The position numbers and the translations under genes are program-made. Under the pieces are notes generated by a model that had not been told where the DNA came from, made no database searches, and saw only the letters and a program-made list of their open reading frames with translations. This document shows, one piece after another, positions 2-37,718 of a DNA stretch of 64,000 nt. Source of the stretch: an uncultured Alphaproteobacteria bacterium (GTDB lineage Bacteria; Pseudomonadota; Alphaproteobacteria; RF32; CAG-239); NCBI GenBank assembly GCA_944391515.1, contig CALXTW010000006.1, positions 4,978-68,977 on the forward strand. Direction: 5' to 3'. The number at the start of each line of letters is the position of its first letter. Position 1 is the stretch's first letter.

Positions 2-589
2 GATAGTGGTACTCGTTATGCAACTTGTACCTGTCCAAGTGGTGTAGCAACTCCATATGGATGTGAAACGTATTATGCATCCCCTTGCAATAACGTTTGT
101 CAAAAAGCTTATGCAGACAACTGCCGCAATCGCACATCTGTACAAACACCTTATGGATGTGAGAGTTATTTTTCAGATTGCTCTTCTAAATGTCAAAAAG
201 CATACGCAGATAACTGTCGTAATCGAACAGCGGTAATTTCTTCTTGTCCTGCTAATGCTGATTGTTCTTACTTTTCAGATTGTAAATCGAAGGTTCAATC
301 TTGGAGTTGTAAGTCAGGCTATGAAAAGTCAGGAAATTCTTGCATAAATCCATGTGATAACCGTACGGCTGTAATTAGCTCATGTCCAACGAATGCAAGT
401 TGTCCTACGTTTGCAGATTGTTCATCTAAAATCGAATCTTGGAGTTGTAATTCCGGTTATATTTATTGGTGTAAAGCCCCAGAAACAAATTGCACAACAC
501 TAGGCTATACCAAATCAGCAAGTCAATGCCCTGAAGGCTACATCAAATGTCCATACAATAGTTCAGCTGTATTTTGTAAAGATTCTTAA
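2..589 (+). CDS. 3' part of Cys-rich repeat protein (5' end outside window)
   Basis: Not in ORF track. Frame 2 is open from base 2 to TAA 587-589: DSGTRYATCTCP...QKAYADNCRNRT (x2)...NCTTLGYTKSASQCPEGYIKCPYNSSAVFCKDS; 25 Cys in 195 aa. Confidence 0.9.
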   Translation, partial: DSGTRYATCTCPSGVATPYGCETYYASPCNNVCQKAYADNCRNRTSVQTPYGCESYFSDCSSKCQKAYADNCRNRTAVISSCPANADCSYFSDCKSKVQSWSCKSGYEKSGNSCINPCDNRTAVISSCPTNASCPTFADCSSKIESWSCNSGYIYWCKAPETNCTTLGYTKSASQCPEGYIKCPYNSSAVFCKDS

Positions 590-618
590 AATTCAATTCA
601 AAAAAAAGGAGAAAGAAA

Positions 619-1284
619 ATGAGAAAGATAAATAAGAGTATTGTACAAATATCTTCCACTTTAGGCTTGATATTAACTATTGGTACTTTACACGCTGCAG
701 AATGCACTCAAGCTCCTGATTGCGCAAATTTGGGATATACAAAAACAGCAAGTGATTGCTCTGGAATGGCTTCTATTAAATGTCCTTTTGATACAAGTAA
801 AGTTTTTTGTGATGAGAAAACAGCAAAAGCATGTGATAAAATAGGAGATATTGCTTATAGTGATGGAACATGTGTTGTAAAGCTAAGTAAATTAGATCCT
901 TTACGTCAAGCAATAGGTGTTGTTGTAAATGTTTCCCCTCTTACTGTTATTAGTTTTTATGAAATCAGTTCTATAAATTGGAACGATGCTAAAAGTTATT
1001 GTGATGATTATACTCTCCATGGTTTGACAAATTGGAGGCTACCTGATAGTAGTGAGTTAAAAATTATTTATAGTAATACAACGAATTTAAATAATGTACA
1101 GGGCAGTTTGTATCAACTAGGTAAGCCAGTGTTTACAGGTAAATACTGGAATTCCACTTATACAATGGCAAAAGAGCAAACAGGAATGTATCCCCATGGA
1201 GGATATGTAGATTTTGCAAATAAGCGCTATAGTACTGAGCGTGTTGAGAAGTTAAATAAATTAAGATGTGCAATAAGTTTATAA
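619..1284 (+). CDS. Secreted protein: Cys module + DUF1566/C-type-lectin-like domain
   Basis: Signal peptide (..TLHAA); CANLGYTKTASDC..KCPFDTSKVFC module; GDIAYSDG..IGVV; WNDAKSYC..WRLP..EL..YWNST..LRC pattern; GGAG RBS. Confidence 0.75.
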   Translation: MRKINKSIVQISSTLGLILTIGTLHAAECTQAPDCANLGYTKTASDCSGMASIKCPFDTSKVFCDEKTAKACDKIGDIAYSDGTCVVKLSKLDPLRQAIGVVVNVSPLTVISFYEISSINWNDAKSYCDDYTLHGLTNWRLPDSSELKIIYSNTTNLNNVQGSLYQLGKPVFTGKYWNSTYTMAKEQTGMYPHGGYVDFANKRYSTERVEKLNKLRCAISL

Positions 1285-1324
1285 TAATATCTATAATGAA
1301 CGCATAAATCAAATATTTAATATT

Positions 1325-1358
1325 ACAAGTCCCTTTTAGTATTAAAGGGACTTGTTTT
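1325..1358. terminator. Intrinsic terminator between convergent genes
   Basis: acaagtcccttt / aaagggacttgt 12-bp stem followed by T run. Confidence 0.8.
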
Positions 1359-1373
1359 GGAAAAGGATAAAGG

Positions 1374-2810
1374 TTACTCTTTAGGTTTGTTTTTATTGCG
1401 CAAAGGAGCACGCTTTTCCTTTTTATCGGCGTATGGGTTTCCGGTTTTGCGTACGGTAATCCGAATTGGAATACCTCCCAAATTAAATGTCTCACGCAAA
1501 TTGTTGGTCAAATAACGCAAATAGGAATCAGGCAGGCCTTCAGGATTGCTTGAGAACATATAAAATGCCGGTGGTCTTGTCTTGGCTTGTGTAATATAAC
1601 GCAACTTAATTCGACGTTTGTTTTTACCCAAAGGAGGTGGGCAGTTATCTTTAATATCTTCAAACCATTTATTCAACGGCGCGGTCGGAATGCGAACATT
1701 CCAACGATCATAAACCTTAAATACTGCACTCATCAATTTATCCAACCCTTCTTTCTTTAGGGCTGAAATTGTAACCGTCGGAACACCTTCAACTTGAGTG
1801 AGAGATGTCTGTAATTTGTCATTGAGTTTTTGCAAGGCTTCTTTGCGGTTGGCAATATCCCACTTATTAACGGCAATCACCAAAGCTCTGCCTTCATCAA
1901 TAACCTCACGGGCAATTGTTAAATCTTGTTTGTCAAGCACGGCATCAGCATCCAATACCAAAACCACAACTTGCGCCATATAGGCGGCGTGTTTTGTGCT
2001 GGCAGCTGACATTTTTTCTAGAGAATCATCTACTCTTGATTGACGGCGTAATCCGGCTGTATCAACCAAAATTACCTTGCGGCCTTTCCACTCCCATTCA
2101 TTACTGATAGCATCACGCGTTACGCCGGCTTCAGGACCTGTCAACATTCTTTCATCGTTAAGAAGAGCGTTAACTAAAGTTGATTTTCCGACATTTGGTC
2201 TGCCGACAATTGCCAATTGAATAGGTTTAGCTTTTGCTTTGGCGTCCAAGTATTGAGTAATTTCTTCGTCACTCATTCCCTCAAAGTCTATTTTTTCATC
2301 TTCTTTTTTGGTCTCTTGCTTGTTGTGGGGGCGCAAAGCCTCATATAAGTCTAACAACCCCAAACCATGCTCAGCCGAAAAAGGAATAGGTTCGCCCAAA
2401 CCAAGTGAATAAGCTTCATGAATACTGTCTTCTTGGAGTTTCCCTTCACATTTATTGGCTAATAACACGACAGGCTTTCCGCTTTGTCTTACCAAGTCGG
2501 CAAAATGCTTGTCAAAAGGTTGCACACCATCTCTTGCATCAAACAAAAACAAGCAAACATCGGCATCATCAATCGCTTTTTTTGTTTGCAACCACATTCT
2601 TTTTTCCAGATTATCTTCGTTTGAGTATTCGTATCCGGCGGTATCAATCACAACCAAGTCCAAATTTTGGAGCTTAGCTTTTGCTTCTTTGCGGTCACGC
2701 GTTACGCCCGGTTGGTCGTGAACAATTGCCAACTTTCTACCAACCAAGCGATTAAACAAGGTCGATTTTCCAACATTAGGTCTGCCGACAATTGCCAGTT
2801 TAATACTCAT
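1374..2810 (-). CDS. der: Ribosome biogenesis GTPase Der (EngA)
   Basis: Two GRPNVGKS P-loops, DTAG, NKxD/NKWD, C-terminal KH-like domain. Confidence 0.98.
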   Translation of the reverse strand: MSIKLAIVGRPNVGKSTLFNRLVGRKLAIVHDQPGVTRDRKEAKAKLQNLDLVVIDTAGYEYSNEDNLEKRMWLQTKKAIDDADVCLFLFDARDGVQPFDKHFADLVRQSGKPVVLLANKCEGKLQEDSIHEAYSLGLGEPIPFSAEHGLGLLDLYEALRPHNKQETKKEDEKIDFEGMSDEEITQYLDAKAKAKPIQLAIVGRPNVGKSTLVNALLNDERMLTGPEAGVTRDAISNEWEWKGRKVILVDTAGLRRQSRVDDSLEKMSAASTKHAAYMAQVVVLVLDADAVLDKQDLTIAREVIDEGRALVIAVNKWDIANRKEALQKLNDKLQTSLTQVEGVPTVTISALKKEGLDKLMSAVFKVYDRWNVRIPTAPLNKWFEDIKDNCPPPLGKNKRRIKLRYITQAKTRPPAFYMFSSNPEGLPDSYLRYLTNNLRETFNLGGIPIRITVRKTGNPYADKKEKRAPLRNKNKPKE

Positions 2811-2824
2811 TTACCATTAATCCT

Positions 2825-4186
2825 TTACTTATATGCAATTAAATCTGCATCATTTGTGGTTAAAATTGTGATACCATCAGCCACAACCGGAGGAACTTCT
2901 ACCCCATCATCCAGAGCGACAAAACTCATAATCTTTCCGGTATAAGGAGACACTGCAAAAGCATATCCGCTAGAAGTTGCCACCAATAAACGATTGTCTG
3001 TTAAGACAGGACCACTCAGGAATACACCGGATTTATCATCATCAGATGTTCCCAAAGGAATTTTTGTACTCCAAACGATTTTACCTGTCTCAGCCTCAAT
3101 AGCTAATAAATCATTTGTGTTTGAGAGAACAAACAACATTCTGCCGGCAACCCATGGCTGATTTGTACTGCCGATGTCTTTTTCCCAAATTCGTTCACCT
3201 GTTCTGATATCAATAGCTACCAAAATATCATTGTGTCCGGCAGCATAAACCACATTGCCGCTAATCACAGGATTTGCCTTAATAGCGTTAATGTTTGCCA
3301 AAGAATTGTTACGAGCGTGAGCCGCTAACCAATCAGACCACAAAGGCGAGCCGGTCGAACCCTTAAATGCTCTTAATTCGCCATTAGAAAAAGCAGCTAC
3401 AATCAAGTCTTGATAAGGGTCATACGCAGGACTTGCTCCGCCGACCAAAACCGTTTGCTCTTGAGCTGATTTATAGCGCCACTCTTCAGTACCCGTTTGG
3501 GCATTTAAGGCAATTAAAGTATTGTCGATTGTCTGCACCAAAACACGGTCATTAGCCACGGTCGGCGCAATTCTAATCGGCATACCGGCATTATAGAACC
3601 AAACTTTTTTGCCAGTAATCATGTCTAAAGAAAACACGCCGCCAAAGCCAGTTGTAGCATAAATCTTGCGTTTATATTCTGCTAAACCGGCACCTTTTAA
3701 GGAGGTTGATTTATCATCTTTAATTAAGGGTTTAAGTTTTCTCTTCCAAATTCTTTCCCCATTATCTAAACGATATGCACTGACTGTTGCATTTGCATCA
3801 ATTGCAAAAACAACTTTATAAGCGATGATTGGAGTTGCAATCAAATAATCTCTTTTAGAATTTCCTTCTCCAAAATTACTATCCCAGAAAGGAGTTAATT
3901 TACTCCCCGTTTGCAAATGCTCCATTCTGTGCATGGCGTTTCCGCCACTTTGAGACCAACTTTTGTTAATATGAGGTCTGGGCAAAACCACCTTGTATTC
4001 GCCTTCCTGATAATCGGGGCGAACTTTTGCTTCCGTGTTAAGCACAGAGATTCTTTCTCCATCCAACACCAATCTGTCTTTAGAAAACATTCCGCAGGAT
4101 GCTAACATCATGCAAGCGACCACGGTTGTAGTTTTTGACAATTTATAAGGAAGCATTGCCTTCTCCTCAAAAATTTTACTAATCAA
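2825..4186 (-). CDS. bamB: PQQ-repeat beta-propeller lipoprotein, BamB-like
   Basis: Lipobox LASC, repeated G..W PQQ motifs, conserved yfgM-bamB-der order; true start may be ATG 4158. Confidence 0.85.
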   Translation of the reverse strand: MISKIFEEKAMLPYKLSKTTTVVACMMLASCGMFSKDRLVLDGERISVLNTEAKVRPDYQEGEYKVVLPRPHINKSWSQSGGNAMHRMEHLQTGSKLTPFWDSNFGEGNSKRDYLIATPIIAYKVVFAIDANATVSAYRLDNGERIWKRKLKPLIKDDKSTSLKGAGLAEYKRKIYATTGFGGVFSLDMITGKKVWFYNAGMPIRIAPTVANDRVLVQTIDNTLIALNAQTGTEEWRYKSAQEQTVLVGGASPAYDPYQDLIVAAFSNGELRAFKGSTGSPLWSDWLAAHARNNSLANINAIKANPVISGNVVYAAGHNDILVAIDIRTGERIWEKDIGSTNQPWVAGRMLFVLSNTNDLLAIEAETGKIVWSTKIPLGTSDDDKSGVFLSGPVLTDNRLLVATSSGYAFAVSPYTGKIMSFVALDDGVEVPPVVADGITILTTNDADLIAYK

Positions 4187-4865
4187 TTGAATTTAAAGCA
4201 GATAACATATCTTGAACTCTTAATTTTAAGCCGTCACTTAAATCGGGAGAGTTCAATATTTCGCCATAAATTTCTTTAGCTTTTTCAATATTACCTTCAC
4301 GAATTTCGAGCATAGCCAGCATTTCCTTAGCTATATTTTTCCAAGAACTCTCGGCATTCATTAAAGGAGTAAGTAGTTTTTCGATTTCTTCTCTCGGAGC
4401 CGTATCTAATTTATAAGAGACTAATTTGACGGCCGTAATATGACGCAATTTAGAGTTAAAATCCTCATCATTAACAATTTTTTCAAGCAAAGCCAAAGCT
4501 TCGGCATTTTTGCCTTGTTCAAACAAGATATTTGCTTTTTGAATTTCGGAAAGATTTTTGTAAATACCTTTATTTTTTTGCTCTATATCAGCCAAGATAT
4601 TAAGGCTCTCTTCATATTTACCTTGATTTTGGAGCTGGAGGGCATAAGCATAAGCATCTGACCAAGTTTCGTTTCTTTTAATTTTCCACGCTTTCAGAGT
4701 TTCGAAGCTGACGGCTATTGTCAAAATTGCAATAATGGCAATGATGATGTGCAAACCATATGTGTCCCAAATTTTTTTGAGTTTATCGTTTTGAACATCT
4801 TCGGAAACTTCTCTGAAAAAATTATCAATAGCTCTAGATTCCGCGTTTGTTTCTTTCTTTTTCAT
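4179..4865 (-). CDS. yfgM: YfgM-like membrane-anchored TPR protein
   Basis: IDNFFREVSEDVQNDKLKKIWD + single TM + helical repeats; upstream of bamB-der. Start taken at ATG 4865 (track gives 4886). Confidence 0.8.
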   Translation of the reverse strand: MKKKETNAESRAIDNFFREVSEDVQNDKLKKIWDTYGLHIIIAIIAILTIAVSFETLKAWKIKRNETWSDAYAYALQLQNQGKYEESLNILADIEQKNKGIYKNLSEIQKANILFEQGKNAEALALLEKIVNDEDFNSKLRHITAVKLVSYKLDTAPREEIEKLLTPLMNAESSWKNIAKEMLAMLEIREGNIEKAKEIYGEILNSPDLSDGLKLRVQDMLSALNSID

Positions 4866-4964
4866 TTTAATACTCACTTTACTCAAGGTTAAAAGTCACA
4901 AAACTATTTTTATATATACCTCAAAATCCCAACAAGGCAATCATTTAATCCGATTCGCTGACAA

Positions 4965-6146
4965 TTATTTCCGAACAATGTCATGAATAAGAAAAGCTTT
5001 TACCCATTTAAGGTCTTTAAGCGGCAATTTTTTCCCAAAAATCATTGTTTTGCAATCAGATGCAATTGAAAGAAAATACCTGTCTGTTGAAGGATCAAAG
5101 TTGACTTCAACCGATTCGATTTTATCCTTGCTGATTTCATTATCTTTTTTTGAGAAAAGCATGAATTTATGAACAATAATGATTTTATACGGCTTAATGA
5201 TGATTTTATCCTTTCGGCACAACAGCCACACGGCTAAAATAATGAGACCTAAGCCACAGCCATACAAACCATATTGCCACAAGCTATTGGTAATATTTAA
5301 TCCAAATTCATCAGAAAGGGCGGAGCAAAACAGAAAACCACCTAAAATAACCAATCCAATCCAAGAAATAATATTATAAGCATCCCAAACAAATTTTCTG
5401 GATTTTATGACTGTTTTGTCTCTTCTGCGAACAAAAGCTAAAGAGGAAGGAAGCGGTATTCTATCATTATATTTATTACTTATAACGCCACTTTTTACGA
5501 GCTCTCGTAATGTTTTATCTAAATCTTCAACATTTCTGACGACCATACCTTCATCAGTCATAAAGATAGCTGGTAAATTCAATCCTTTGGCATAATACTC
5601 CCACATGCGTCGGATTTTTTTATCCGAAGTGCTGATGTACAGAGGTACGATTTTGTTTTTATTTTTGTGGTAGAGTTCAATAATGTATTTATTTTTATTT
5701 AGAAAGCCGAATTGGAAAAATTCGATTCTAAAACGCACACCTTCATAATTTTGTAGCTTTTCCTTGAAGTGTTGTTTTTTTCCAAAGACGGGACGATGAA
5801 TAATTTCCACGCTATCTTTATTTAGCAAAATTTTCTTATATCTGATGTAGGAAAAGATAAGAGAAATGACAATCCACGCACCTAAAGCAATAATAGTCCA
5901 ATCAAACACCCAAGGTTTCATGAATGGTTCAATAACGGCTTGTTCATTTCCCAATATATCAAAAGAGCAAGTCGTACCCTTAAATCCATTCAAAAACTCA
6001 TAAAGACCTAATAGCACCAGCAATGCGCCAAAGAGCAATCCAGGATATAAAATGCTCAAAGCGATCCTGTCAGATTTTTTTGTAGGAAGGTTTTCCAGTT
6101 TTAATTCGAAACTGTGGCTAAAATGGTCAGGTGCGATAAAATTCAT
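4965..6146 (-). CDS. Hypothetical membrane protein (two TM-hairpin + soluble-domain units)
   Basis: 393-aa ORF with two pairs of TM helices, each followed by a beta-rich basic segment. Confidence 0.7.
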   Translation of the reverse strand: MNFIAPDHFSHSFELKLENLPTKKSDRIALSILYPGLLFGALLVLLGLYEFLNGFKGTTCSFDILGNEQAVIEPFMKPWVFDWTIIALGAWIVISLIFSYIRYKKILLNKDSVEIIHRPVFGKKQHFKEKLQNYEGVRFRIEFFQFGFLNKNKYIIELYHKNKNKIVPLYISTSDKKIRRMWEYYAKGLNLPAIFMTDEGMVVRNVEDLDKTLRELVKSGVISNKYNDRIPLPSSLAFVRRRDKTVIKSRKFVWDAYNIISWIGLVILGGFLFCSALSDEFGLNITNSLWQYGLYGCGLGLIILAVWLLCRKDKIIIKPYKIIIVHKFMLFSKKDNEISKDKIESVEVNFDPSTDRYFLSIASDCKTMIFGKKLPLKDLKWVKAFLIHDIVRK

Positions 6147-6309
6147 GTCATTTTTCCTTCATATAATAATTATGACACTCCTATGCTATATTATTTTATT
6201 TAAATAATCATCAATTTTTTTTTGCATAATTTAGATAAAGATTCAATCAATATTAACCACTATTCGTTTAACGTGAAATCAAATTAATAAAAAGCAGAAG
6301 GAAAGACTT

Positions 6310-8337
6310 ATGGGAAGTATTGAAATTTTTGCCAATAATGTATATACGAATATAACCATTTGGGGTATGATTTTATTATTTTTTACCTCAATTTATTGCA
6401 GTTATAATCTGAATTTAAGTCGTGCAATTTGGTTTTTATTTGCCGGATTATTGGTAGAATTAATCGGTTCGTGGTATGGCTATAACATTAGTTATAGTGC
6501 TTCTGCTGCAGAGATTAGTATATCTGTCGCGCTTGAGTTAACGTTTATTTTGATATCTGTGATTTTTTTGGCGCTGGCTGCAGCTGAAATCTTAACCGGA
6601 AAAGCGCCGGTTCTGGCTTACGCAGTAGGCGGAATTGTTTTAGGTATGTCCGCTATTATATTTTTCTGTTTTATCTATCCGGATGGAGACATGATAAACA
6701 ATATGCGTAAAATCTTCCCAATAGCCGGTTTTGCATATCTTATGGCAAGTTTTTGGTCACAGGCTTCAGCCCAGCAACAAAGCGGATATTGGATTGCAGC
6801 ACTGACAACAACAGTTACGACAGTATTTTTACTTATGCGCTTGTTTAATATCGGCTATTTTGTAGAACACACTTGGTACATTTCAATTTTTACCTATGTA
6901 TCGTTGATTATGTCATTAATGATGATAAAGAACGGCTATGCCTACAAGCAAGTTGAAAAAATGGAAGCAGAGATAGAAAAATACAATCGTCGTCTGGAAG
7001 AAATTATTAAATCATCTCCATTCCCGATTACCATATCCCGTCTCAGTGATGATAAGATTTTGATGGCGAATGACAATGCGGTAAAATTGTTTGGCATTTT
7101 GCCGGCAGAACTGGATAGATATCGCCTCAAAGATTTTTTTGCCGATGGCGATAATCGTCAACTCTTAAACGAACGTCTGGAAAAAGAGAAGGAAGTTCAT
7201 GATTTTGAGATTTTGGCCAAAGCCGTTAATGGTGAAACGCCCTTTTGGTTGCTGACTTCGGCAAACGTAATTGACTATAACTATGATGTTGCACTGTACT
7301 GTTCGTTCCAAGATATCACCAGCCGTAAAAATAGGGAGGCAGTACTAAAGAATCAAGCCACTCGAGATCCGTTAACCTCACTTTTTAATCGTCGTTATTT
7401 TGAAGATGAGGTCAATCGTCGTATAGCTTTAGCTCAAGCAAATCATCAGCAATACAGCGTCTTAATGATTGATGCTGACCACTTTAAGCGAGTTAACGAT
7501 ACCTACGGACACAAAACCGGTGATAAGGTTTTGATAGAATTATCATCTACGGCCGAAAAATCTTTACGTCAGGATGATATCGTTGCCCGTTATGGTGGTG
7601 AAGAATTTGTGGTCTTTTTGCCGGAACTCTCAGCTGAAGCTGCAAAAAATGTGGCTGACAGGTTAAGAGAAACCATTTCCAAAATAGTTGTATATTCCGA
7701 CCAAGGAGATGAAGTCAGATTTACGGTAAGTATCGGTATTTCTTCGTCGGCAATTTCTGATAATATTGATACGCTCATAAAGACCTCAGATGAAGCTTTA
7801 TATCGCGCTAAAGAAAATGGAAGAAACCGCTGTGAAATTTTTACTGTTGAGGATTTGAAAACTTTCAACGCATCATTGGATCATAAAGATGAAAGCTCAA
7901 ATCATCATCCGATTTTTGATAAAGAAAACACACAAGAAATCTCTCTTCTCGATGGGGTTGATGCTAATCATATAGTTGATAATCAAACCCAAATTGAAGA
8001 GCAAACAAAATCGCAACCTCAGCCGAGTACAGCTCCGTCAGTTCCGGTTCTACCTCAACCACAGGCGCAACCTCAGCCAAGTACAGCTCCGTCAGCTCCG
8101 GTTCTACCTCAACCGCAAGCGCAACCTCAGCCGAGTACAGCTCCGTCAGCTCCGGTTCTACCTCAACCTCAACCTACCGTAGCTCAAGCAAAGCCAATAT
8201 CTTCTCAAGAGCTACTTCAGTCAGCACAAAGTGCGGCCGTTCAATCTCAACCGCAACCAAACACAATGGCGCAGGCTCCGTCAACACCAGAGAACAGTTA
8301 TCCGATTCTCGGAGTAGATAATGATGAGCTCAAATAA
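6310..8337 (+). CDS. Membrane diguanylate cyclase (multi-TM, PAS, GGDEF, Pro/Gln tail)
   Basis: About 7 N-terminal TMs; PAS (..FQDIT); DPLTSLFNRR, DADHFKRVNDTYGH, RQDD I-site, GGEEF, ALYRAK. Confidence 0.93.
   Translation: MGSIEIFANNVYTNITIWGMILLFFTSIYCSYNLNLSRAIWFLFAGLLVELIGSWYGYNISYSASAAEISISVALELTFILISVIFLALAAAEILTGKAPVLAYAVGGIVLGMSAIIFFCFIYPDGDMINNMRKIFPIAGFAYLMASFWSQASAQQQSGYWIAALTTTVTTVFLLMRLFNIGYFVEHTWYISIFTYVSLIMSLMMIKNGYAYKQVEKMEAEIEKYNRRLEEIIKSSPFPITISRLSDDKILMANDNAVKLFGILPAELDRYRLKDFFADGDNRQLLNERLEKEKEVHDFEILAKAVNGETPFWLLTSANVIDYNYDVALYCSFQDITSRKNREAVLKNQATRDPLTSLFNRRYFEDEVNRRIALAQANHQQYSVLMIDADHFKRVNDTYGHKTGDKVLIELSSTAEKSLRQDDIVARYGGEEFVVFLPELSAEAAKNVADRLRETISKIVVYSDQGDEVRFTVSIGISSSAISDNIDTLIKTSDEALYRAKENGRNRCEIFTVEDLKTFNASLDHKDESSNHHPIFDKENTQEISLLDGVDANHIVDNQTQIEEQTKSQPQPSTAPSVPVLPQPQAQPQPSTAPSAPVLPQPQAQPQPSTAPSAPVLPQPQPTVAQAKPISSQELLQSAQSAAVQSQPQPNTMAQAPSTPENSYPILGVDNDELK
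8014..8175 (+). repeat. 3 x 54-bp tandem repeat encoding QPQPSTAPS(V/A)PVLPQPQA
   Basis: Units start at 8014, 8068, 8122; near-identical DNA. Confidence 0.95.
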
Positions 8338-9469
8338 AAAATCTTGTGGAGTGGAAAATCTTTGCGGTGGTTGTCCTCTGCGTCATTTATCAGAGGAAGA
8401 ATACCAACGTACCAAAGCCGAAAAGATTAATACCATTCTTAAAGGTATAAAGCTAGAAACTCTACCTCTTTCTCAGCCGATATTTATTGGTGATGGAACA
8501 AGAAGAAGAGCCACTTTTGCCTTTAATTTTGCTAAAGGTAAAATGGTATTGGGGTTTAATGCTTATCATAGCAACGAACTTGTTGATTGCGGTAATTGTT
8601 TGTTGTTACGCTCCGAAATTCGTCAAGCTCTGCCGGCTCTCAAAAATTTACTGGCAGATTTGTGTGCTGAGCCATTTGTCTCCAAACAAGGCAAAAAAAC
8701 AAGTTCTATAAGGCTGACCAAAGGAGATTTATCCATTACTTTGGCGGATAATGGCTTGGATGTGGTCATAGAACTTCCGCAAATGCCTGAATTAAATCAT
8801 CGGATGATTATTTCCGAACATCTTTCTTCTTTGCCTGATGTTATCCGTGTTTCTTGGCGACGTCGAGTTGATGACAAGCCCGAGGTCATTGTTGAAAAAT
8901 TAGCCCCGCAAATCAAAATTGGCTCAGTTACGGTATATATTCCGGCCGGAACATTTCTCCAACCCTCTCAGCAAGGAGAACAAGCACTCATTTCCCAAGT
9001 TTTGGAATATTTTGGGGAGGATAGGGGCAAAATTGCCGACCTCTTTTGCGGCGTTGGCACATTTTCTTATCCACTTTCGGAGTTAAAGGGCAATTCTATA
9101 ACCTCAATCGATTCTTCGGCAGATTTGCTTGAAGGGTTTCAACGCTCGGTTAATCGGAATATGATTTCCAATATCACGATTAAAGCCAAAAATTTGTTCA
9201 AATATCCGTTAGATGAACAAGAGCTGAAAGACTTTGATATTGTGGTTTTTGACCCACCCCGTGCCGGAGCTAAAGCACAAGTTGAAAAATTAGCCAATAT
9301 GGGCTTAAGAGGACCTCGCAAAATCATTGCTGTTTCGTGCAATCCCGAAACCTTTGTGAGAGATGCTAATATTTTGTTGAACGGCGGGTGGTGCTTGCAA
9401 AATTTGCGTATGGTTGACCAATTTATCTATTCTGACCACAGCGAAATAGTTGCGTTGTTTACAAAATAA
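8321..9469 (+). CDS. rlmD: RNA (uracil-5)-methyltransferase, RlmD/TrmA family
   Basis: Fe-S Cys motif C..LCGGC, FLQP, DLFCGVG, DPPRAG, VSCNP, DQF. Confidence 0.85.
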   Translation: MMSSNKKSCGVENLCGGCPLRHLSEEEYQRTKAEKINTILKGIKLETLPLSQPIFIGDGTRRRATFAFNFAKGKMVLGFNAYHSNELVDCGNCLLLRSEIRQALPALKNLLADLCAEPFVSKQGKKTSSIRLTKGDLSITLADNGLDVVIELPQMPELNHRMIISEHLSSLPDVIRVSWRRRVDDKPEVIVEKLAPQIKIGSVTVYIPAGTFLQPSQQGEQALISQVLEYFGEDRGKIADLFCGVGTFSYPLSELKGNSITSIDSSADLLEGFQRSVNRNMISNITIKAKNLFKYPLDEQELKDFDIVVFDPPRAGAKAQVEKLANMGLRGPRKIIAVSCNPETFVRDANILLNGGWCLQNLRMVDQFIYSDHSEIVALFTK

Positions 9470-9511
9470 ATAAGAACGTCTATATTAATTCTCAAAGAAG
9501 AGGAATAGACT

Positions 9512-10027
9512 ATGTTAAAAAAAATAAGCCTGATTTTATTTGTTTTTTTAACCGGTTGCGAATATAGCAATATGGATTATGAAACTTGCCCGCGTGTGCA
9601 AATTATCCGCGATAATGCTTATCTGACACAAATTGTCAACTATCGGGAAGAATTTCAAATCAACCTGATTGGCTATGACGGCTATTGCTATTATGACCGT
9701 AAAATTGAACAAAACAAGGCTTTGATAAAGCCGATTTTTCAAATCAAACGCCTCCGTCCGAGTGATGAAACGGATGTTCACTTTGCTTTTTATACAGAAA
9801 CGGTAAAAGGTCCTCCGCAATATATCGGTAAAAAAACGCACTTTGCTGCCGTTACAATTCCTTTAGATGCGACAGAAATAGAATATACCGCACCGCAGGT
9901 AATGGTTTATGTGCCCGAAGAATATAAATACAGTTATGATATCAATATGGGCTTGGTCATTTCGCCCGAAGAGCGTAAATACAATCATCGCACGTTTGAT
10001 ATTGAATATCGCTATTACAACAAATAA
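9512..10027 (+). CDS. Hypothetical lipoprotein
   Basis: Lipobox LTGC after hydrophobic stretch; GAGG RBS. Confidence 0.75.
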   Translation: MLKKISLILFVFLTGCEYSNMDYETCPRVQIIRDNAYLTQIVNYREEFQINLIGYDGYCYYDRKIEQNKALIKPIFQIKRLRPSDETDVHFAFYTETVKGPPQYIGKKTHFAAVTIPLDATEIEYTAPQVMVYVPEEYKYSYDINMGLVISPEERKYNHRTFDIEYRYYNK

Positions 10028-10039
10028 AAGGAGAAACAA

Positions 10040-12019
10040 ATGATTTTTGGCGAAAATAAAGAGCTGAAAAATATGGCTAACGCGATTCGCTTTTTGAGCG
10101 CGGATGCAATTGAAAAATCAAAATCAGGTCACCCCGGCATGCCTTTGGGAATGGCCGATGTTGCCACGGTTTTGTTCTCCAAATTCATAAAAATTGACCC
10201 TGAAAATCCCCGCTGGTTTGATAGAGACCGTTTTGTCTTATCTGCAGGTCATGGCTCAATGTTGCTTTATTCTTTACTTTATCTGTTGGGCTACAAAGAT
10301 ATCACCATTGATGATATTGCCAACTTCCGCCAATTAGGTGCCAAAACGGCAGGTCACCCCGAATATGGTCATTTAGCAGGAATTGACATGACCACCGGTC
10401 CATTGGGACAAGGTATTTCCTCTGCTGTGGGTATGGCTTTGGCCGAAAGAATGATTAACGCCCGCTTTGGTGATGATTTGTGTAATCACTATACCTATGT
10501 TATTAACGGTGACGGATGCTTAATGGAAGGTATTTCAGAGGAAGCATTGTCTTTAGCCGGACATCTGAAATTAAATAAATTAATAGTCTTGTGGGATAAT
10601 AACAATATCACGATTGACGGCACGGTTGATAAAGCCAACTCCACCGACCAAATCAAACGTTTTCAGGCTCTTGGCTGGAATACGTTGGAAATTGATGGTC
10701 ATGATTATGCTGAAATTGAAAAAGCCATAGCAAAAGCCCAAAAGTCAGACAAGCCAACCTTAATTGCCTGCAAAACCAAAATCGGTTTTGGCGCGCCGAC
10801 CAAATGCGGCACCTCCAAATGCCATGGTTCTCCTCTTGGCGCGGAAGAAGTTGCCGCTATGCGTAAGGCGCTTGATTGGCCTTATGACCCGTTTGAAGTT
10901 CCTGAAGAAATTTTGTCTTCTTGGCGTGAAGCCGGGTTAAGAAATCATCAAACTTACCAAAAATGGGAAGAAAAAGCCCATGCTGCCGGCAAAACTTTTG
11001 ATGACTTTATTAATGACCGCTTACCATCTGGTTGGGATGACCACCTCAAAGCTCTGGAAGAAAAAGCCATTGCCGAGCAAACCAAAGTAGCCACCCGCAA
11101 AGCCTCTCAAATGTGTTTGGAACAAATCGTGCCATACGTTCCGCAAATTATCGGCGGTTCGGCAGATTTGGCAGCCTCAAACCTCACTTTTGTTGATGGC
11201 ATGAAAACCGTTACCAAAGATGACTATTCCGGAAATAATATTATGTATGGCATAAGAGAACATGCCATGGCTGCTATCATGAACGGCTTATCATTGCATG
11301 GTGGAGCAATTCCTTACGGCGGAACCTTCTTTGTCTTTTCGGACTATATGCGTCCGTCAATGCGCTTGGCCGCACTTATGGGAATACGTGCGATTTATGT
11401 TTTGACACATGATTCCATCGGCGTCGGTGAAGATGGCCCAACCCATCAGCCGATAGAACATCTGGCTTCTTATCGCGCTATGCCGAATATCTATACTTTC
11501 CGCCCATGCGACGTGGTTGAAACCGCCGAATGCTGGAGAATAGCTATTGAAAGCGAAAAAACGCCAAGCATCTTGGCTCTGTCTCGCCAAAATTTGCCAA
11601 TGCTCCGCACAGATGCTAAGTTAAATTTGAGTGCGCGCGGCGGATATATTATCTATGGTGAAAAAGACAATCGCCAAGCCACACTCATTGCCACCGGTTC
11701 AGAGGTATCTCTGGCGGTAGAAGCCGCTCAAGCTCTGGCACAAGAGGACATAAAGGTTGCCGTTGTCTCCATGCCTTGTACCGAGTTGTTTGATGCTCAA
11801 GACATCAGCTATCAAGAAGACATATTGGGTCAAGCCCCACGCATAGCTATCGAAGCCGGCTCAAAATTCGGTTGGGAACGCTATGTCGGTCTTAAAGGCG
11901 ATATTATCGGAATGGATGGCTTTGGCGCCTCCGCTCCGGCGAGTGAATTGTATAATTACTTTGGTATCACCAAAGAAGAAATTATCGATTCGGTAAAGAA
12001 TTTAATTAAAGAGGCCTAA
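10040..12019 (+). CDS. tkt: Transketolase
   Basis: SGHPG, DRFVLSAGH, GHPE, GDGCLMEG, YGIREH, THDSIGVGEDGPTHQP. Confidence 0.98.
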   Translation: MIFGENKELKNMANAIRFLSADAIEKSKSGHPGMPLGMADVATVLFSKFIKIDPENPRWFDRDRFVLSAGHGSMLLYSLLYLLGYKDITIDDIANFRQLGAKTAGHPEYGHLAGIDMTTGPLGQGISSAVGMALAERMINARFGDDLCNHYTYVINGDGCLMEGISEEALSLAGHLKLNKLIVLWDNNNITIDGTVDKANSTDQIKRFQALGWNTLEIDGHDYAEIEKAIAKAQKSDKPTLIACKTKIGFGAPTKCGTSKCHGSPLGAEEVAAMRKALDWPYDPFEVPEEILSSWREAGLRNHQTYQKWEEKAHAAGKTFDDFINDRLPSGWDDHLKALEEKAIAEQTKVATRKASQMCLEQIVPYVPQIIGGSADLAASNLTFVDGMKTVTKDDYSGNNIMYGIREHAMAAIMNGLSLHGGAIPYGGTFFVFSDYMRPSMRLAALMGIRAIYVLTHDSIGVGEDGPTHQPIEHLASYRAMPNIYTFRPCDVVETAECWRIAIESEKTPSILALSRQNLPMLRTDAKLNLSARGGYIIYGEKDNRQATLIATGSEVSLAVEAAQALAQEDIKVAVVSMPCTELFDAQDISYQEDILGQAPRIAIEAGSKFGWERYVGLKGDIIGMDGFGASAPASELYNYFGITKEEIIDSVKNLIKEA

Positions 12020-12031
12020 TATCATTATTCT

Positions 12032-12066
12032 AAAAAAAACACCGCTTTAGAGGCGGTGTTTTTTTT
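12032..12066. terminator. Bidirectional intrinsic terminator
   Basis: A8-caccgc-loop-gcggtg-T8 between convergent genes. Confidence 0.9.
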
Positions 12067-12081
12067 AGGTCTCACATTCAC

Positions 12082-13215
12082 TTAGAATGAAGTTTCACAA
12101 ACATACGACAATTTCGAGTCTGTTGAGCAGTTATATCTGTTATTACAACTATAATAGCATCCGTTTGTAAATTGTCCATTTAAACAAATAGCTGCACCTG
12201 AACTTGTATGTATCCCACAAGTCAAATTCCAATCGCCTTGTGTTCCAGCATTTTTCAACAATGTACAAGTATGTGCACCGGTTGCCAGTTTCCATGCGTG
12301 TCCCGGAGTTGATTTGTTAGCACAAGCCATTGTGGCTTCAAGGTTTGTACCGGTTCCTGAAGCCAAGGCGACGATACCGTGTTGTCCGGAGCCATCTACC
12401 TCCACCACAATACCAACAACGTTTCCGTCTTCCGAAACATAAGCATCACCCACTTGGTAAACTTTTCCGGCTTCTCCGGCACCACTGCCGCTAAATTCTC
12501 TCACACAAAAGGCATGATTAACTGCATAACAGCCGCTAGCGTTTTCTTTTCTGCAACATCCTTTAGAGAAATCATCCCAGCGATCACCCGCTGTCGTTGT
12601 ACATTGATTATCAGCAAACCTGTTTTCTCCGGTAACTTGACTAACATCTGCAGCAAAGCAAGCAGATGTAGAACTCGTTTTCCAGAGTAAATCGGCATTC
12701 TGTAAAATACACCCAATTGAAGTCTTAAATTGAGTCGTTCCCGAGATTTTCCCTAAAGTAGCATTAATGATATTCAGATTAGGTTTAATCAATGAGGCTT
12801 CTTCCAAAGTTGGCAGTCTCCATCCGCTGATACCATCAACCGAGTGGCTTCCGCAAGGATCTGTTGTTGAGGTAAATTGTTGAATCGACATCATCTTACC
12901 GCTAACGTCAAACACAATTCCCACCGGAATACGCCCCGGCAACACTTCTGCCGAAATAGCGTCTGTATAGACAATATCACCGACTTCGGCTTTTTTATTA
13001 CCATTTTGGTCGGTATAAGCGGTGCAGAAATATTTCGAGTCATCAAACGGGCAACGTAGTTTTGCCAAACCGCCGCAATCTGAGGCAGTCTTGTCATAGC
13101 CCAAACCTTCGCAAGTCGGTGGCACAACGCAAGTTTGTGCCCGAACTTCCGCCACGGAGAAAGCCGTTGTCAATAACAGCATCGCTCCTATTGTCAGTTT
13201 ACAGTTCTTGTTCAT
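12082..13215 (-). CDS. Secreted protein: Cys module + two DUF1566/C-type-lectin-like domains
   Basis: Signal peptide (..VRA); CEGLGYDKTASDC..RCPFDDSKYFC; VGDIVY..PVGIV..GWRLPTLEE..FCVREF; second unit YQVGDAY..DG.VVGIVVEVDGSGQHG..WKL..YVCETSF. Confidence 0.75.
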   Translation of the reverse strand: MNKNCKLTIGAMLLLTTAFSVAEVRAQTCVVPPTCEGLGYDKTASDCGGLAKLRCPFDDSKYFCTAYTDQNGNKKAEVGDIVYTDAISAEVLPGRIPVGIVFDVSGKMMSIQQFTSTTDPCGSHSVDGISGWRLPTLEEASLIKPNLNIINATLGKISGTTQFKTSIGCILQNADLLWKTSSTSACFAADVSQVTGENRFADNQCTTTAGDRWDDFSKGCCRKENASGCYAVNHAFCVREFSGSGAGEAGKVYQVGDAYVSEDGNVVGIVVEVDGSGQHGIVALASGTGTNLEATMACANKSTPGHAWKLATGAHTCTLLKNAGTQGDWNLTCGIHTSSGAAICLNGQFTNGCYYSCNNRYNCSTDSKLSYVCETSF

Positions 13216-13240
13216 GGTCTTTCTCCTTTATTTGATTTAC

Positions 13241-14164
13241 TTAATTCATTGCCGGCATCCAGCACCTTAAGGCGCCGTCACACCAATAATTATCCAAGTC
13301 AACCTTGCCGATGGCACAGCCGGTTGCACAATATTTCTGTGAACATTCTTCTAAATTGCACACCAAACCGGCCGGACAACTGTCCAGCGTGCATTTGTAT
13401 TCGCAAACTTTACAATTATTGTAATATTTAATGCCGTCTTTGAGGCAGTAGTCGGTTGGTGTAACCGGCCCCATATCGGAACAAGTCATGTTATATCCGG
13501 CTTTACATTCGCATGAGGTATATTTGGTTACGCCGTCTTGGGTGCAACCTTCGCCCACACCTTGGAGATTTTCTCCGTCACAAGTCTTGTCAAAATATGC
13601 TGGGCAAACACATTTACTGTAATAAGGAACACCATCTTCAACACAAGTATCACCCTCGGGCTCCATCGGAGCAACACATTTGGTCTCAGGGTATAAACTT
13701 CTGTCACAATAACACATATATTTACCACCACAGCTGTCGCCACTGACGGTGTTAGGGTAAGTACAATCTTTTTTATTGTATTTGTATCGAGCGTCACAAC
13801 ATTCTTTGAAATAAGCCGAATTATAAGGGCAAATCCCGCTGGGATTGCCACTCGGACAAGAGGTTAAGGTAAACCCAAAATTTTTACATTGTTCAGGAGA
13901 AATATCCGGAAATTCAGGGAAAGATAATTCTCCCCCTCCGGTAATAAAAGATACGCTCGCCGCCTGAAAAGAATTGCGCATAGGCAAGCCTATTCCTAGG
14001 CTTGCCCTTGACAAAGGTTCAAACTGATTTAGACTGGTTCTTACGAAGTGCGTGTATTGCTGAGAAACACCTTGCTCAGTCATAGAAACAAAAACATTTT
14101 CACTCGTGCCTCCCATAGCGGTTAGCACAAGCAACGATAATCCTATCGCAAGCTGCTTTCTCAT
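13241..14164 (-). CDS. Secreted Cys-rich repeat protein
   Basis: Start at ATG 14164 (GAGG RBS); hydrophobic N-terminus; 29 Cys in the last ~215 aa; three C..DG(V/I).(Y/K)Y..C repeats. Confidence 0.85.
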   Translation of the reverse strand: MRKQLAIGLSLLVLTAMGGTSENVFVSMTEQGVSQQYTHFVRTSLNQFEPLSRASLGIGLPMRNSFQAASVSFITGGGELSFPEFPDISPEQCKNFGFTLTSCPSGNPSGICPYNSAYFKECCDARYKYNKKDCTYPNTVSGDSCGGKYMCYCDRSLYPETKCVAPMEPEGDTCVEDGVPYYSKCVCPAYFDKTCDGENLQGVGEGCTQDGVTKYTSCECKAGYNMTCSDMGPVTPTDYCLKDGIKYYNNCKVCEYKCTLDSCPAGLVCNLEECSQKYCATGCAIGKVDLDNYWCDGALRCWMPAMN

Positions 14165-14200
14165 AATACACCTCATTATAACTGAACTTTGTCACTTTAT

Positions 14201-36252: not shown

Positions 36253-36714
36253 ATGCCCCAACTGCAAGATAATTTACCCGAATTAAGAGATATTCATTTG
36301 CCCGATGGCGTTTCGGCTTTTCCTCTGGCTTATGGCTGGTGGGTAATTGGGCTCAGTATCATTGGGGCGATTGTGCTCATTAAAGTTATCTTGTATTTGC
36401 GCCGCAAAAGCAAAAAACGCTACGCTCGAAAATTAATTGAAGCCATAGCCGAGGCTAACCCCGTCTTGGCCGCCAAACAAGCATCCGAAATTCTGCGCCG
36501 AATTTGTGTTCTGAAATATCCTAAAGCGGCTACGCTTTATGGGCAAGATTGGCTTGATTTTTTGCACCTCCATTGCCGCCAAAAATTAAATGAATCAGAA
36601 GCAGGCTTGTTGTTAAATGCCCCTTATATGAATGAGAATGCTAAGGGCTATGGCACAAAAGAGATAAAAGAAATCAAGCAGTTTTGCATTTCATGGATAG
36701 GAGAAAATCTATGA
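36253..36714 (+). CDS. DUF4381-like membrane protein
   Basis: LRDIHLP..S.FPLAYGWW, A.L.G..WL.FL; first gene of vWA/Bat operon. Confidence 0.85.
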   Translation: MPQLQDNLPELRDIHLPDGVSAFPLAYGWWVIGLSIIGAIVLIKVILYLRRKSKKRYARKLIEAIAEANPVLAAKQASEILRRICVLKYPKAATLYGQDWLDFLHLHCRQKLNESEAGLLLNAPYMNENAKGYGTKEIKEIKQFCISWIGENL

Positions 36715-37715
36715 TACATATTGCCTATCCCTTAATGTTTTTGTTGCTCTTGTTGCCCTTTGCCGTGCACTATTTATTTTCTCCGCTCAAAGGGATGCAC
36801 GGTGATGCATTGCACGTTCCTTTTTTGAAAGATTTAGCCAATATTAATCTAAAGTCGGGAAGCGTTTGGGGGCAAGTCAATGTAAGCGATTCTTCAAAAC
36901 TCTCGCTCCATTTTTGGGAGTTGTTTGCCATATTTGCTTTATTGGTTTGTGCCATGTCTCGCCCGCAATGGGTCGGAGAGCCGATTCGTATCCATAGCCA
37001 AAGCCGAGATGTCTTGCTGGTGATGGATATTTCAAATTCTATGGAAGAACCTGATTTTGTGATAAATCGTCGTCCGGTAAGTAGGCTGAATGCCGTTAAA
37101 AAAGTTGCCGGCGAATTTATCGACCGCCGCGCTGATGACAGAATAGGACTGATATTGTTTGGCACAAGGGCTTATCTGCAATCCCCGATTACTTATGATA
37201 AAGCCGCCGTTAAACAAATTCTCTATTCCATGCAGGCAGGAATGGCCGGAAATTCCACGGCTATAGGTGATGCTCTGGGCTTGGCACTCAAAAGCCTGAA
37301 AGATAGTCCCCATGCGCAAGATAAAGTCATCATTCTTTTGACCGATGGCGAGAATAATGATGGAACAATAACTTTGCCTCAAGCTATCAAATTAGCCAAA
37401 GAAGCCGGAGTAAAAATTTACACAATCGGCGTTGGGGGAGATAGAAGAGACTTTTCCTCTTTCTTTGGGCTAAGATTGGGTGGCGAGGTAGATGAAGCCG
37501 GCCTCAAACAAATTGCCGATGACACTTCAGGCACTTATTTCCGTGCCCGCGATACTGAGAGTTTGCAGCAAGTTTATGCCGCTATTGATGAGCTTGAACC
37601 CACCCAAAATGAAGATAACTTTGTTCAAGAGACCAAAGAATATTACTATATTCCACTATTAGCGGCGTTAGTTTTGGGAATGCTTTTGGTATGGCAAATC
37701 AGAAAGGGAAGATAA
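36711..37715 (+). CDS. batA: BatA-like vWA protein
   Basis: SRPQW, DISNSM MIDAS, DRIGLILFG..AYLQSPIT, TAIGDALG, LTDGENN. Confidence 0.88.
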   Translation: MIHIAYPLMFLLLLLPFAVHYLFSPLKGMHGDALHVPFLKDLANINLKSGSVWGQVNVSDSSKLSLHFWELFAIFALLVCAMSRPQWVGEPIRIHSQSRDVLLVMDISNSMEEPDFVINRRPVSRLNAVKKVAGEFIDRRADDRIGLILFGTRAYLQSPITYDKAAVKQILYSMQAGMAGNSTAIGDALGLALKSLKDSPHAQDKVIILLTDGENNDGTITLPQAIKLAKEAGVKIYTIGVGGDRRDFSSFFGLRLGGEVDEAGLKQIADDTSGTYFRARDTESLQQVYAAIDELEPTQNEDNFVQETKEYYYIPLLAALVLGMLLVWQIRKGR

Positions 37716-37718
37716 AAA

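Follow-up and report, generated by a model that had tools for sequence, protein, structure and literature searches.

The 64-kb stretch analysed here (contig CALXTW010000006.1, positions 4,978 to 68,977, assembly GCA_944391515.1; hereafter the window) derives from an uncultured alphaproteobacterium of the CAG-239 group and carries two gene pairs in which a Cys-rich stalk protein is followed by a secreted tip protein. A short Cys motif recurs in all four proteins. On balance, we favour the explanation that the two pairs belong to a modular 'lollipop' adhesin family, in which the motif would serve as neck between stalk and head and as recombination junction. Adhesin function, surface exposure and the association of separately encoded halves are what we infer beyond the gene architecture itself.

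According to this proposal, both modules would be part of a large family, so far undescribed, of modular proteins that are exported by Sec, rich in disulfides and built from three blocks, and that belong to uncultured gut Alphaproteobacteria. The stalk block would comprise a signal peptide, a flexible N-terminal region of ~70 residues and Cys-rich beta-hairpin repeats, the neck block (~36-40 residues) would be the motif, and the head block would be a variable binding domain. The blocks are encoded in one chain (stalk-neck-head), as a stalk with or without neck that is followed in the same operon by a signal peptide-neck-head gene, which is the form of both window modules, or as signal peptide-neck-head genes that stand alone at other sites of the genome.

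Two stalk and tip modules in the window

An initial annotation of the window had described a two-gene layout of a Cys-rich protein and then a secreted partner, and this layout is present twice, with all four open reading frames (ORFs) as described. Of the first stalk gene, A (2..589, + strand), only the 3' part is included, as its 5' end lies beyond the window edge. The visible part encodes 195 aa with 25 Cys (12.8%), and its translation shows a stalk body of two pairs of ~40-aa Cys repeats and a motif copy (WCKAPETNCTTLGYTKSASQCPEGYIKCPYNSSAVFCKDS; 467..586, +) that forms the final 40 residues, 2 residues before the stop. In the closest full-length relative of A, a 329-aa protein at locus L009 (4932-5921), a signal peptide and an N-domain precede an internal motif-like copy and Cys repeats, and the motif follows at the C-terminus. 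The tip protein B (619..1284, +; 221 aa) has a signal peptide (619-699, +), the motif (700-819, +; residues 28-67) and a Lcl_C/DUF1566 C-type-lectin-like head (about 970-1251, +).

The second pair lies on the - strand. Stalk protein D is complete (13241..14176, -), with its true start probably at 14164 because homologues begin with MRKQLAIG. It comprises a signal peptide, an N-domain without Cys, a diverged internal motif copy (13787-13903, -), Cys-rich hairpin repeats and a conserved tail, ..NYWCDGALRCWMPAMN (13244-13288, -), which stands in the place of the motif. Its partner C (12082..13215, -; 377 aa) is composed of a signal peptide (13138-13215, -), the motif (13015-13134, -; about residues 28-66), a weak Lcl_C-like region and a second, un-named Cys-containing domain. 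The intergenic gaps measure 27 nt between the stop of A and B and 25 nt between D and C, and B and C are each preceded by their own Shine-Dalgarno-like sequence. A terminator scan found no terminator-like site between A and B or between D and C, and promoter and terminator scans gave nothing beyond chance level.

Exchange of stalk bodies and heads at the motif

Related loci differ abruptly at or near the motif. The proteins P0102 (Lcl_C head) and P0127 (EGF-like head) come from different metagenomes but are encoded at one and the same locus of the chromosome. This locus is bordered by glgB-glgX-malQ and flgK-flgI, its flanks are ~98.5% identical, and two further tip genes come after each of the two genes; the collinearity of P0102 and P0127 stops at residue 339, within the motif. 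The tips of loci L058 and L059 have an identical 66-residue signal peptide plus motif, which is followed by largely different heads (49% identical overall). Six tip paralogues in one metagenome-assembled genome (MAG) are 86-98% identical in motif DNA and, among the three copies with enough upstream sequence, 98-100% identical in signal peptide DNA, and some 60 nt behind the motif identity has fallen to random level in all pairs. Fused and free tips have patches of head DNA in common.

The orthologue of A-B at L001 shares 92.5% DNA identity from window nt 457 on, 10 nt before the A motif, and its stalk body upstream of the nt 457 match is unrelated to A. The orthologue of D-C at L070 has a signal peptide and motif nearly identical to those of C (two substitutions); DNA similarity stops ~55 nt after the motif, and the two tip proteins are ~60% identical to about residue 158 and unrelated beyond. 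These breakpoints, which are located at the motif or <= about 55 nt from it, including in the orthologues of both window modules, show that stalk bodies and heads are swapped between alleles by recombination, with the motif as the constant boundary. Such shuffling would be expected of an adhesin system that diversifies rapidly.

Sequence, distribution and setting of the motif

A strict regular expression for the motif has four matches in the six-frame translation of the window, all inside A, B, C and D, and 0 matches in each of 50 codon shuffles of the window. A hidden Markov model (HMM) built without A, C and D scored C with 56 bits (E 5e-16) and A with 32 bits (E 1e-8). The motif is thereby confirmed at the C-terminus of A and just behind the signal peptides of B and C, as had been annotated, with the independent model supporting the copies in A and C. 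The 'diverged copy' reported in D is weak by the HMM (5 bits), yet it is conserved across the stalk family, where the alignment gives the version C-K-x-LGY-T-x-TSC...CPYN..YFK.CC.

The motif is a new small domain of about 36-40 residues, C1-x5-6-C2-xxLGY-TKTAS-x-C3-x7-8-C4-PFD-x-SKVF-C5. Among 250 unique copies (consensus spacing C1-x3-P-x-C2-xx-LGY-TKTASD-C3-x-G-x3-LK-C4-PFD-x-SKVF-C5), C1 is conserved in 77%, C2 in 100%, C3 in 96%, C4 in 99% and C5 in 97%, the G of LGY in 100% and the P after C4 in 98%, and the core is formed by C2, C3, C4 and C5 together with the P of CPFD and the G of LGY, the latter being invariant. In the AlphaFold2 model of B (mean predicted local distance difference test score, pLDDT, of 78), the motif is a mostly irregular mini-domain with one short hairpin and a pLDDT of 84-90. 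The initial annotation recognised no described family in the motif; correspondingly, none of the Pfam, NCBIfam and PHROG models and PDB sequences searched covers it, and no description of the motif or of the stalk/tip family was found in the literature. The 'CysRRep' repeats of a 2026 preprint have another Cys spacing (Cx6-9Cx5-7Cx8-11Cx7-8CC). The sole name given by a cluster look-up is 'hypothetical protein [Alphaproteobacteria bacterium]'.

When 1.84 billion cluster representatives (clusters defined at 50% identity) were searched exhaustively with a motif profile, 1062 clusters were returned at E<=1e-3, including 201 at E<=1e-10. In a scan of one genome per species, 49 of 49 motif loci were from MAGs of uncultured gut Alphaproteobacteria or 'proteobacterium', with human gut, Hadza and roe-deer caecum among the sources. 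Several MAGs hold 4-7 motif copies, often at contig ends, and many motif genes (L011, L016-L019, L021-L023, L028 and others) lie ~10-500 nt from a contig end. The conserved 5' module of signal peptide and motif is thus where assemblies break, and the motif copies in each MAG are probably undercounted, or variants from several strains have been merged.

The first motif copy starts at or before residue 45, directly behind the signal peptide, in 151 of the 155 top proteins; C1 falls at residues 22-33 in almost all of them, and 44 carry two to six copies. Five copies are found within the 245 aa of P0132, and a motif closes each of about seven stalk units in P0130 (1067 aa). Four settings were thus observed: behind the signal peptide, at the stalk end, between stalk and tip in fusions, and in tandem arrays. 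Hundreds of stand-alone motif proteins have no adjacent stalk. The suggestion that the motif is a simple terminal tag was not sustained, as the motif is also internal in fusions and occurs in tandem arrays of up to 5-7 copies.

Stalk types and their pairing with tips

The 291 homologues of stalk D fall into three length classes, namely D-type stalks of about 305-313 aa, which have the tail ..DLDNYWCxGALRCW.. and no terminal motif, A-type stalks of about 330-337 aa, which end in the motif like A, and single-chain stalk-motif-tip fusions of 461-541 aa. The possibility that D is a truncated or frameshifted A-type stalk was rejected, because large clusters share its conserved tail (1032 members in P0059, 354 in P0073), and the other reading frames of the D region hold no motif remnant. 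Membership of A in the EGF families was likewise dismissed (EGF_MSP1_1, 17.6 bits at a cutoff of 27; cEGF, 15.1 bits at a cutoff of 26.6; no match for D). A PDB sequence search with the stalk yielded no relative, and Foldseek matches of the stalk to the EGF arrays of Notch ligands and NEL were insignificant (E>0.02). In the model of the fusion P0027, residues 1-71 are disordered, and the stalk is a run of beta-hairpins with a pLDDT of about 90, a value also reached by the head. For the head, Foldseek gave a match to the Bacteroides fimbrial protein 4eps (E 1e-4).

The order of stalk and then tip is conserved in relatives at every locus examined. A-type stalks in the loci derived from the motif search (L001/3/6, L008, L009, L010, L014, L017, L018) have a tip gene with signal peptide and motif 12-55 nt downstream every time. 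All five loci sampled via the stalk have downstream genes on the same strand, which in four of the five (L063, L064, L065 and L068, with two tips at L064) encode a tip that has both a signal peptide and the motif; at the fifth, L062, an A-type stalk is followed by a tip ORF without signal peptide or motif, which is probably a broken fusion. D-type stalks also precede tips (D-C in the window, L065, L068, L070 and L004), so that a motif on the stalk is not needed for pairing. The view that stalk and tip constitute a functional unit is supported, most strongly because natural fusions exist that are alleles of split loci (Rosetta-stone principle). Of the modular stalk and tip system envisaged in the initial annotation, the unit, the gene order and the Lcl head fold of B are upheld, and the terminal-tag role of the motif is not.

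Variable heads of the tip proteins

The head of B matches PF07603 (Lcl_C/DUF1566) with 37.5 bits, above the gathering cutoff of 34.9 (E 3e-9, residues 118-211), and its best Foldseek match is the C-terminal domain of Legionella Lcl (8q4e; E 2e-4, TM 0.66 normalised to the target). The tip of B thus has the head fold of Legionella Lcl. The match of C to PF07603 stays under the cutoff (15.8 bits, E 0.017) and is partial, covering the first half of the domain; the designation of both partners as lectin-like is therefore borne out for B and reached weakly by C. Lcl_C was matched by 25 of 51 tips, and the other 26 are without a Pfam domain. The head types seen include Lcl_C/DUF1566 C-type-lectin-like, phage-tail-collar-like (a Collar domain was found in P0135 and P0155), EGF-like Cys and several un-named ones. 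At L064 (1878-4037), a 719-aa tip has an N-terminal motif and then three consecutive Lcl_C-like heads, so heads can be multimerised within one chain.

The commonest contexts at the signal-peptide end are QAQTC, LAQTC and VQAQC. A lipoprotein nature of the window proteins was rejected, as neither B (..LHAAEC) nor C (..VRAQTC) has the lipobox [LVI][ASTVI][GAS]C, and the cleavage region of D is devoid of nearby Cys; a minority (e.g., the L038 group with ..IAAC or ..LAAC) are lipobox-like. We also discarded a polymorphic toxin or contact-dependent inhibition cassette, given that the scanned tips match no Pfam toxin family. The genes downstream of tips are housekeeping genes or further tips, with no cognate immunity gene. 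No reverse transcriptase-like ORF was recognised on reading the ORF lists of the window, although no systematic search for diversity-generating retroelements was made.

Cysteine parity and a possible covalent link

D-type stalks have 29 Cys, an odd number, in 17 of 17 matches to the tail pattern. Another 12 stalks of ~305-309 aa, listed as 'other', also have 29 Cys, and those whose sequences were read have the same D-type tail plus a few residues. Even counts prevail among A-type stalks (16 of 17, most often 32 Cys) and fusions (48 of 57). Among stand-alone tips, the count from C1 onwards is odd for 110 of 144 (90 of 111 for those with a single motif copy), and the mature window proteins B, C and D hold 9, 21 and 29 Cys, respectively, all odd. 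Internal and tandem motif copies are without C1 and have four Cys each, which identifies C1 as the extra cysteine of the tips; it is located 0-3 residues from their predicted mature N-terminus. This odd/even pattern suggests a disulfide link between stalk and tip and lends some indirect support to the docking or polymerisation role that the initial annotation had hypothesised for the motif.

Covalent docking is accordingly worded here as a tentative proposal, clearly less probable than the lollipop architecture as such: split halves would be re-joined after export by an intermolecular disulfide between C1 of the tip and the last Cys of a D-type stalk, the orphan being the final one in ..YWCxGALR-C-W... 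The parity classes agree with this, as D-type stalks and stand-alone tips are odd and fusions even; the 29 Cys of D and 21 of C give an even sum, and both orphan cysteines flank the exact point of chain continuity in fusions, in the C1-C2 loop. However, the A-B pair of the window does not fit, because A-type stalks are even and offer no orphan partner, and the odd cysteine could equally lead to homodimerisation of tips or function in redox or metal chemistry. Parity is moreover indirect, and some counts come from possibly truncated metagenomic proteins. The more elaborate version, a split adhesin that is stapled by a dedicated disulfide, with the motif as universal plug and recombination at the plug making new heads, is slightly more doubtful again.

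Alternative explanations

Apart from the covalent variants, two other explanations were weighed against the lollipop adhesin family. The motif could be an anchoring or sorting module, i.e., an envelope-binding or outer-membrane export/retention domain that tethers variable passengers in the manner of SLH, LysM or choline-binding repeats or of sorting tags. The succession of a signal peptide, 1-5 motif copies and a variable domain is typical of anchoring repeats, and the position behind the signal peptide is extremely conserved. In fusions, however, the motif separates stalk from head and lies some 300 residues behind the N-terminus, its recurrence after each stalk unit of P0130 is more in keeping with a structural connector than with an anchor or a tag, and no dedicated transporter gene is linked at any locus examined. 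We therefore regard an anchoring role as unlikely. Even less can be said for phage-derived receptor-binding proteins or prophage cargo, that is, tail-fibre-like or lysogenic-conversion genes spread by podophages, an origin that we consider very improbable. It draws on L004 (= L024) and the IMG/VR contig L061, where a T7/BPP-1-like structural block directly precedes a D-type stalk plus tip, or a tip alone, and on the phage tail Collar domain of some tips. At L004 (1-10942), the podophage block (portal, Bbp19, scaffold, capsid, nozzle) is followed directly by a short D-type stalk (9303-9965) and a tip with signal peptide and motif (10001-10942), and on L061 (270-7927) the structural block has a tip gene behind it at the contig end. 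Yet Sec signal peptides on all members misfit cytoplasmic virion assembly, the motif was found on 1 of 2.9 million viral contigs, and the window modules and most other loci lie among housekeeping genes (der, bamB, tkt, ftsK, glgB). PHROG searches gave no match for the stalk or the motif; A, C, D and P0009 had none, and B had one weak match to a family of unknown function. With podophage adjacency at 2 loci only, a phage tail fibre was rejected as general explanation. The podophage-adjacent modules themselves may be prophage cargo that spreads stalk/tip modules.

Several observations also weigh against the favoured reading of the family as lollipop adhesins with the motif as neck and recombination junction. 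The loci examined show no machinery for secretion or anchoring that would be linked to the stalk/tip genes, so a periplasmic location is possible. The neck is modelled with moderate scores in the fusion P0027 (pLDDT 51-72 vs 84-90 in B). 'Paralogue' counts are uncertain because MAG bins may merge strains. To our knowledge, Lcl_C has just one characterised ligand class, and most head types appear to have no known function. Finally, the DNA of the A and B motif copies in the window is ~65-70% identical and contains no extended stretch of identity, so that the exchange is to be read as an evolutionary pattern between strains, not as demonstrated within-cell switching; ongoing recombination between A and B in the window genome is unsupported at this identity.

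Comparison with known systems

Adhesins with a stalk and a lectin head and cassette swapping at a conserved junction are already known kinds of systems, whereas the motif domain, the stalk family, the grammar of split, fused and free forms and the parity pattern appear to be undescribed so far. Lcl of Legionella pneumophila is a lollipop adhesin in which a helix that binds to the surface forms the N-terminal part, followed by a stalk of collagen and a DUF1566 head; it is a substrate of type II secretion (PMC11162425). The proteins described here are likewise exported and resemble it in their layout, where a long repetitive stalk connects the N-terminal region to a DUF1566 head. They differ in that Cys-rich hairpin repeats replace the collagen triple-helix stalk, in that a Cys neck lies between stalk and head, and in that their heads are interchangeable and often encoded as separate genes. 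The C-terminal domain of Lcl is without cysteines (PMC11162425), unlike the heads found here with their disulfide-capable cysteines. Bacteroidales fimbrial tip proteins (4eps) share the distal lectin-like DUF1566 head on a fibre and the gut bacterial host, and a weak NCBIfam match to FimD_tip_adhes was obtained. In contrast to these fimbrial tips, the stalk/tip family belongs to another phylum, has another stalk chemistry and shows no pilin or donor-strand domains, lipoprotein signal, usher or sortase-like assembly genes.

In CdiA (CdiA-CT after VENN) and Rhs proteins (after PxxxxDPxGL), a short motif borders a hypervariable C-terminal domain, and orphan cassettes downstream repeat the motif. 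As in these cassettes and in the swapping of phage tail-fibre tips, the alleles analysed here differ just after the motif and extra cassettes lie downstream. The differences are that the variable domains are here proposed to be binding domains and not toxins, that immunity genes are missing, and that each downstream cassette is an entire gene, with a start codon and a signal peptide of its own. The likeness to Giardia variant-specific surface proteins drawn in the initial annotation extends to the high cysteine content, the variable families and the extracellular location, which is presumed for the present proteins. No sequence or fold match to the Giardia proteins was found, D has one CXXC and no C-terminal transmembrane helix, and the CRGKA tail is missing in D and A; this comparison was abandoned.

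Other features of the window and of related loci

Two stalk/tip arrays adjoin flagellar genes, at L055/L058 (11395-17620; flgK, flgI and a rod-binding protein) and at L004 (11935-13707; fliI, fliJ). This adjacency is probably a coincidence, and the window modules are not near flagellar genes. Elsewhere in the window, a membrane PAS-GGDEF protein (6310-8337, +) has C-terminal tandem PQPQAQPQPSTAPSAPVL repeats, which are unusual for a diguanylate cyclase. A BatA/BatB/BatD-like operon (36253-41275, +) encodes VWA and TPR proteins, and its BatB-like protein ends in a long Gln/Ser/Glu-rich low-complexity tail. Four consecutive ORFs at 48463-58458 (+; 768, 220, 1382 and 798 aa) have no Pfam match and lie in a region of strong AT skew. 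Their products have hydrophobic stretches in the centre and tandem repeats that are acidic or rich in Pro (5x QTPPTKPEEKVEE; PEPTPTPTP), and they look like large secreted or effector-like proteins.

Implications for uncultured gut Alphaproteobacteria

Gut Alphaproteobacteria of the CAG-239 kind are uncultured and almost unstudied, and their stalk/tip genes, all labelled hypothetical, are among the largest and most variable secreted families of the lineage. The present analysis adds a new small domain (~1000 clusters), a new stalk family (~300 homologues) and a modular grammar that includes natural fusions. Recombination that is sharply bounded by a putative disulfide domain of 40 residues provides a clean natural example of domain shuffling. 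If the covalent-plug reading were true, one stalk scaffold could bear any tip encoded around the genome, which would amount to a covalent combinatorial surface-display system of a kind not known in bacteria. The parity pattern yields a simple falsifiable prediction, that stalk and tip assemble covalently, which, if confirmed, could also provide a handle for protein engineering. With the motif as exchange boundary, the lineage could therefore diversify binding while keeping its export and scaffold parts, and the stalk/tip proteins are likely to determine attachment to mucus, host glycans, food particles or other microbes.

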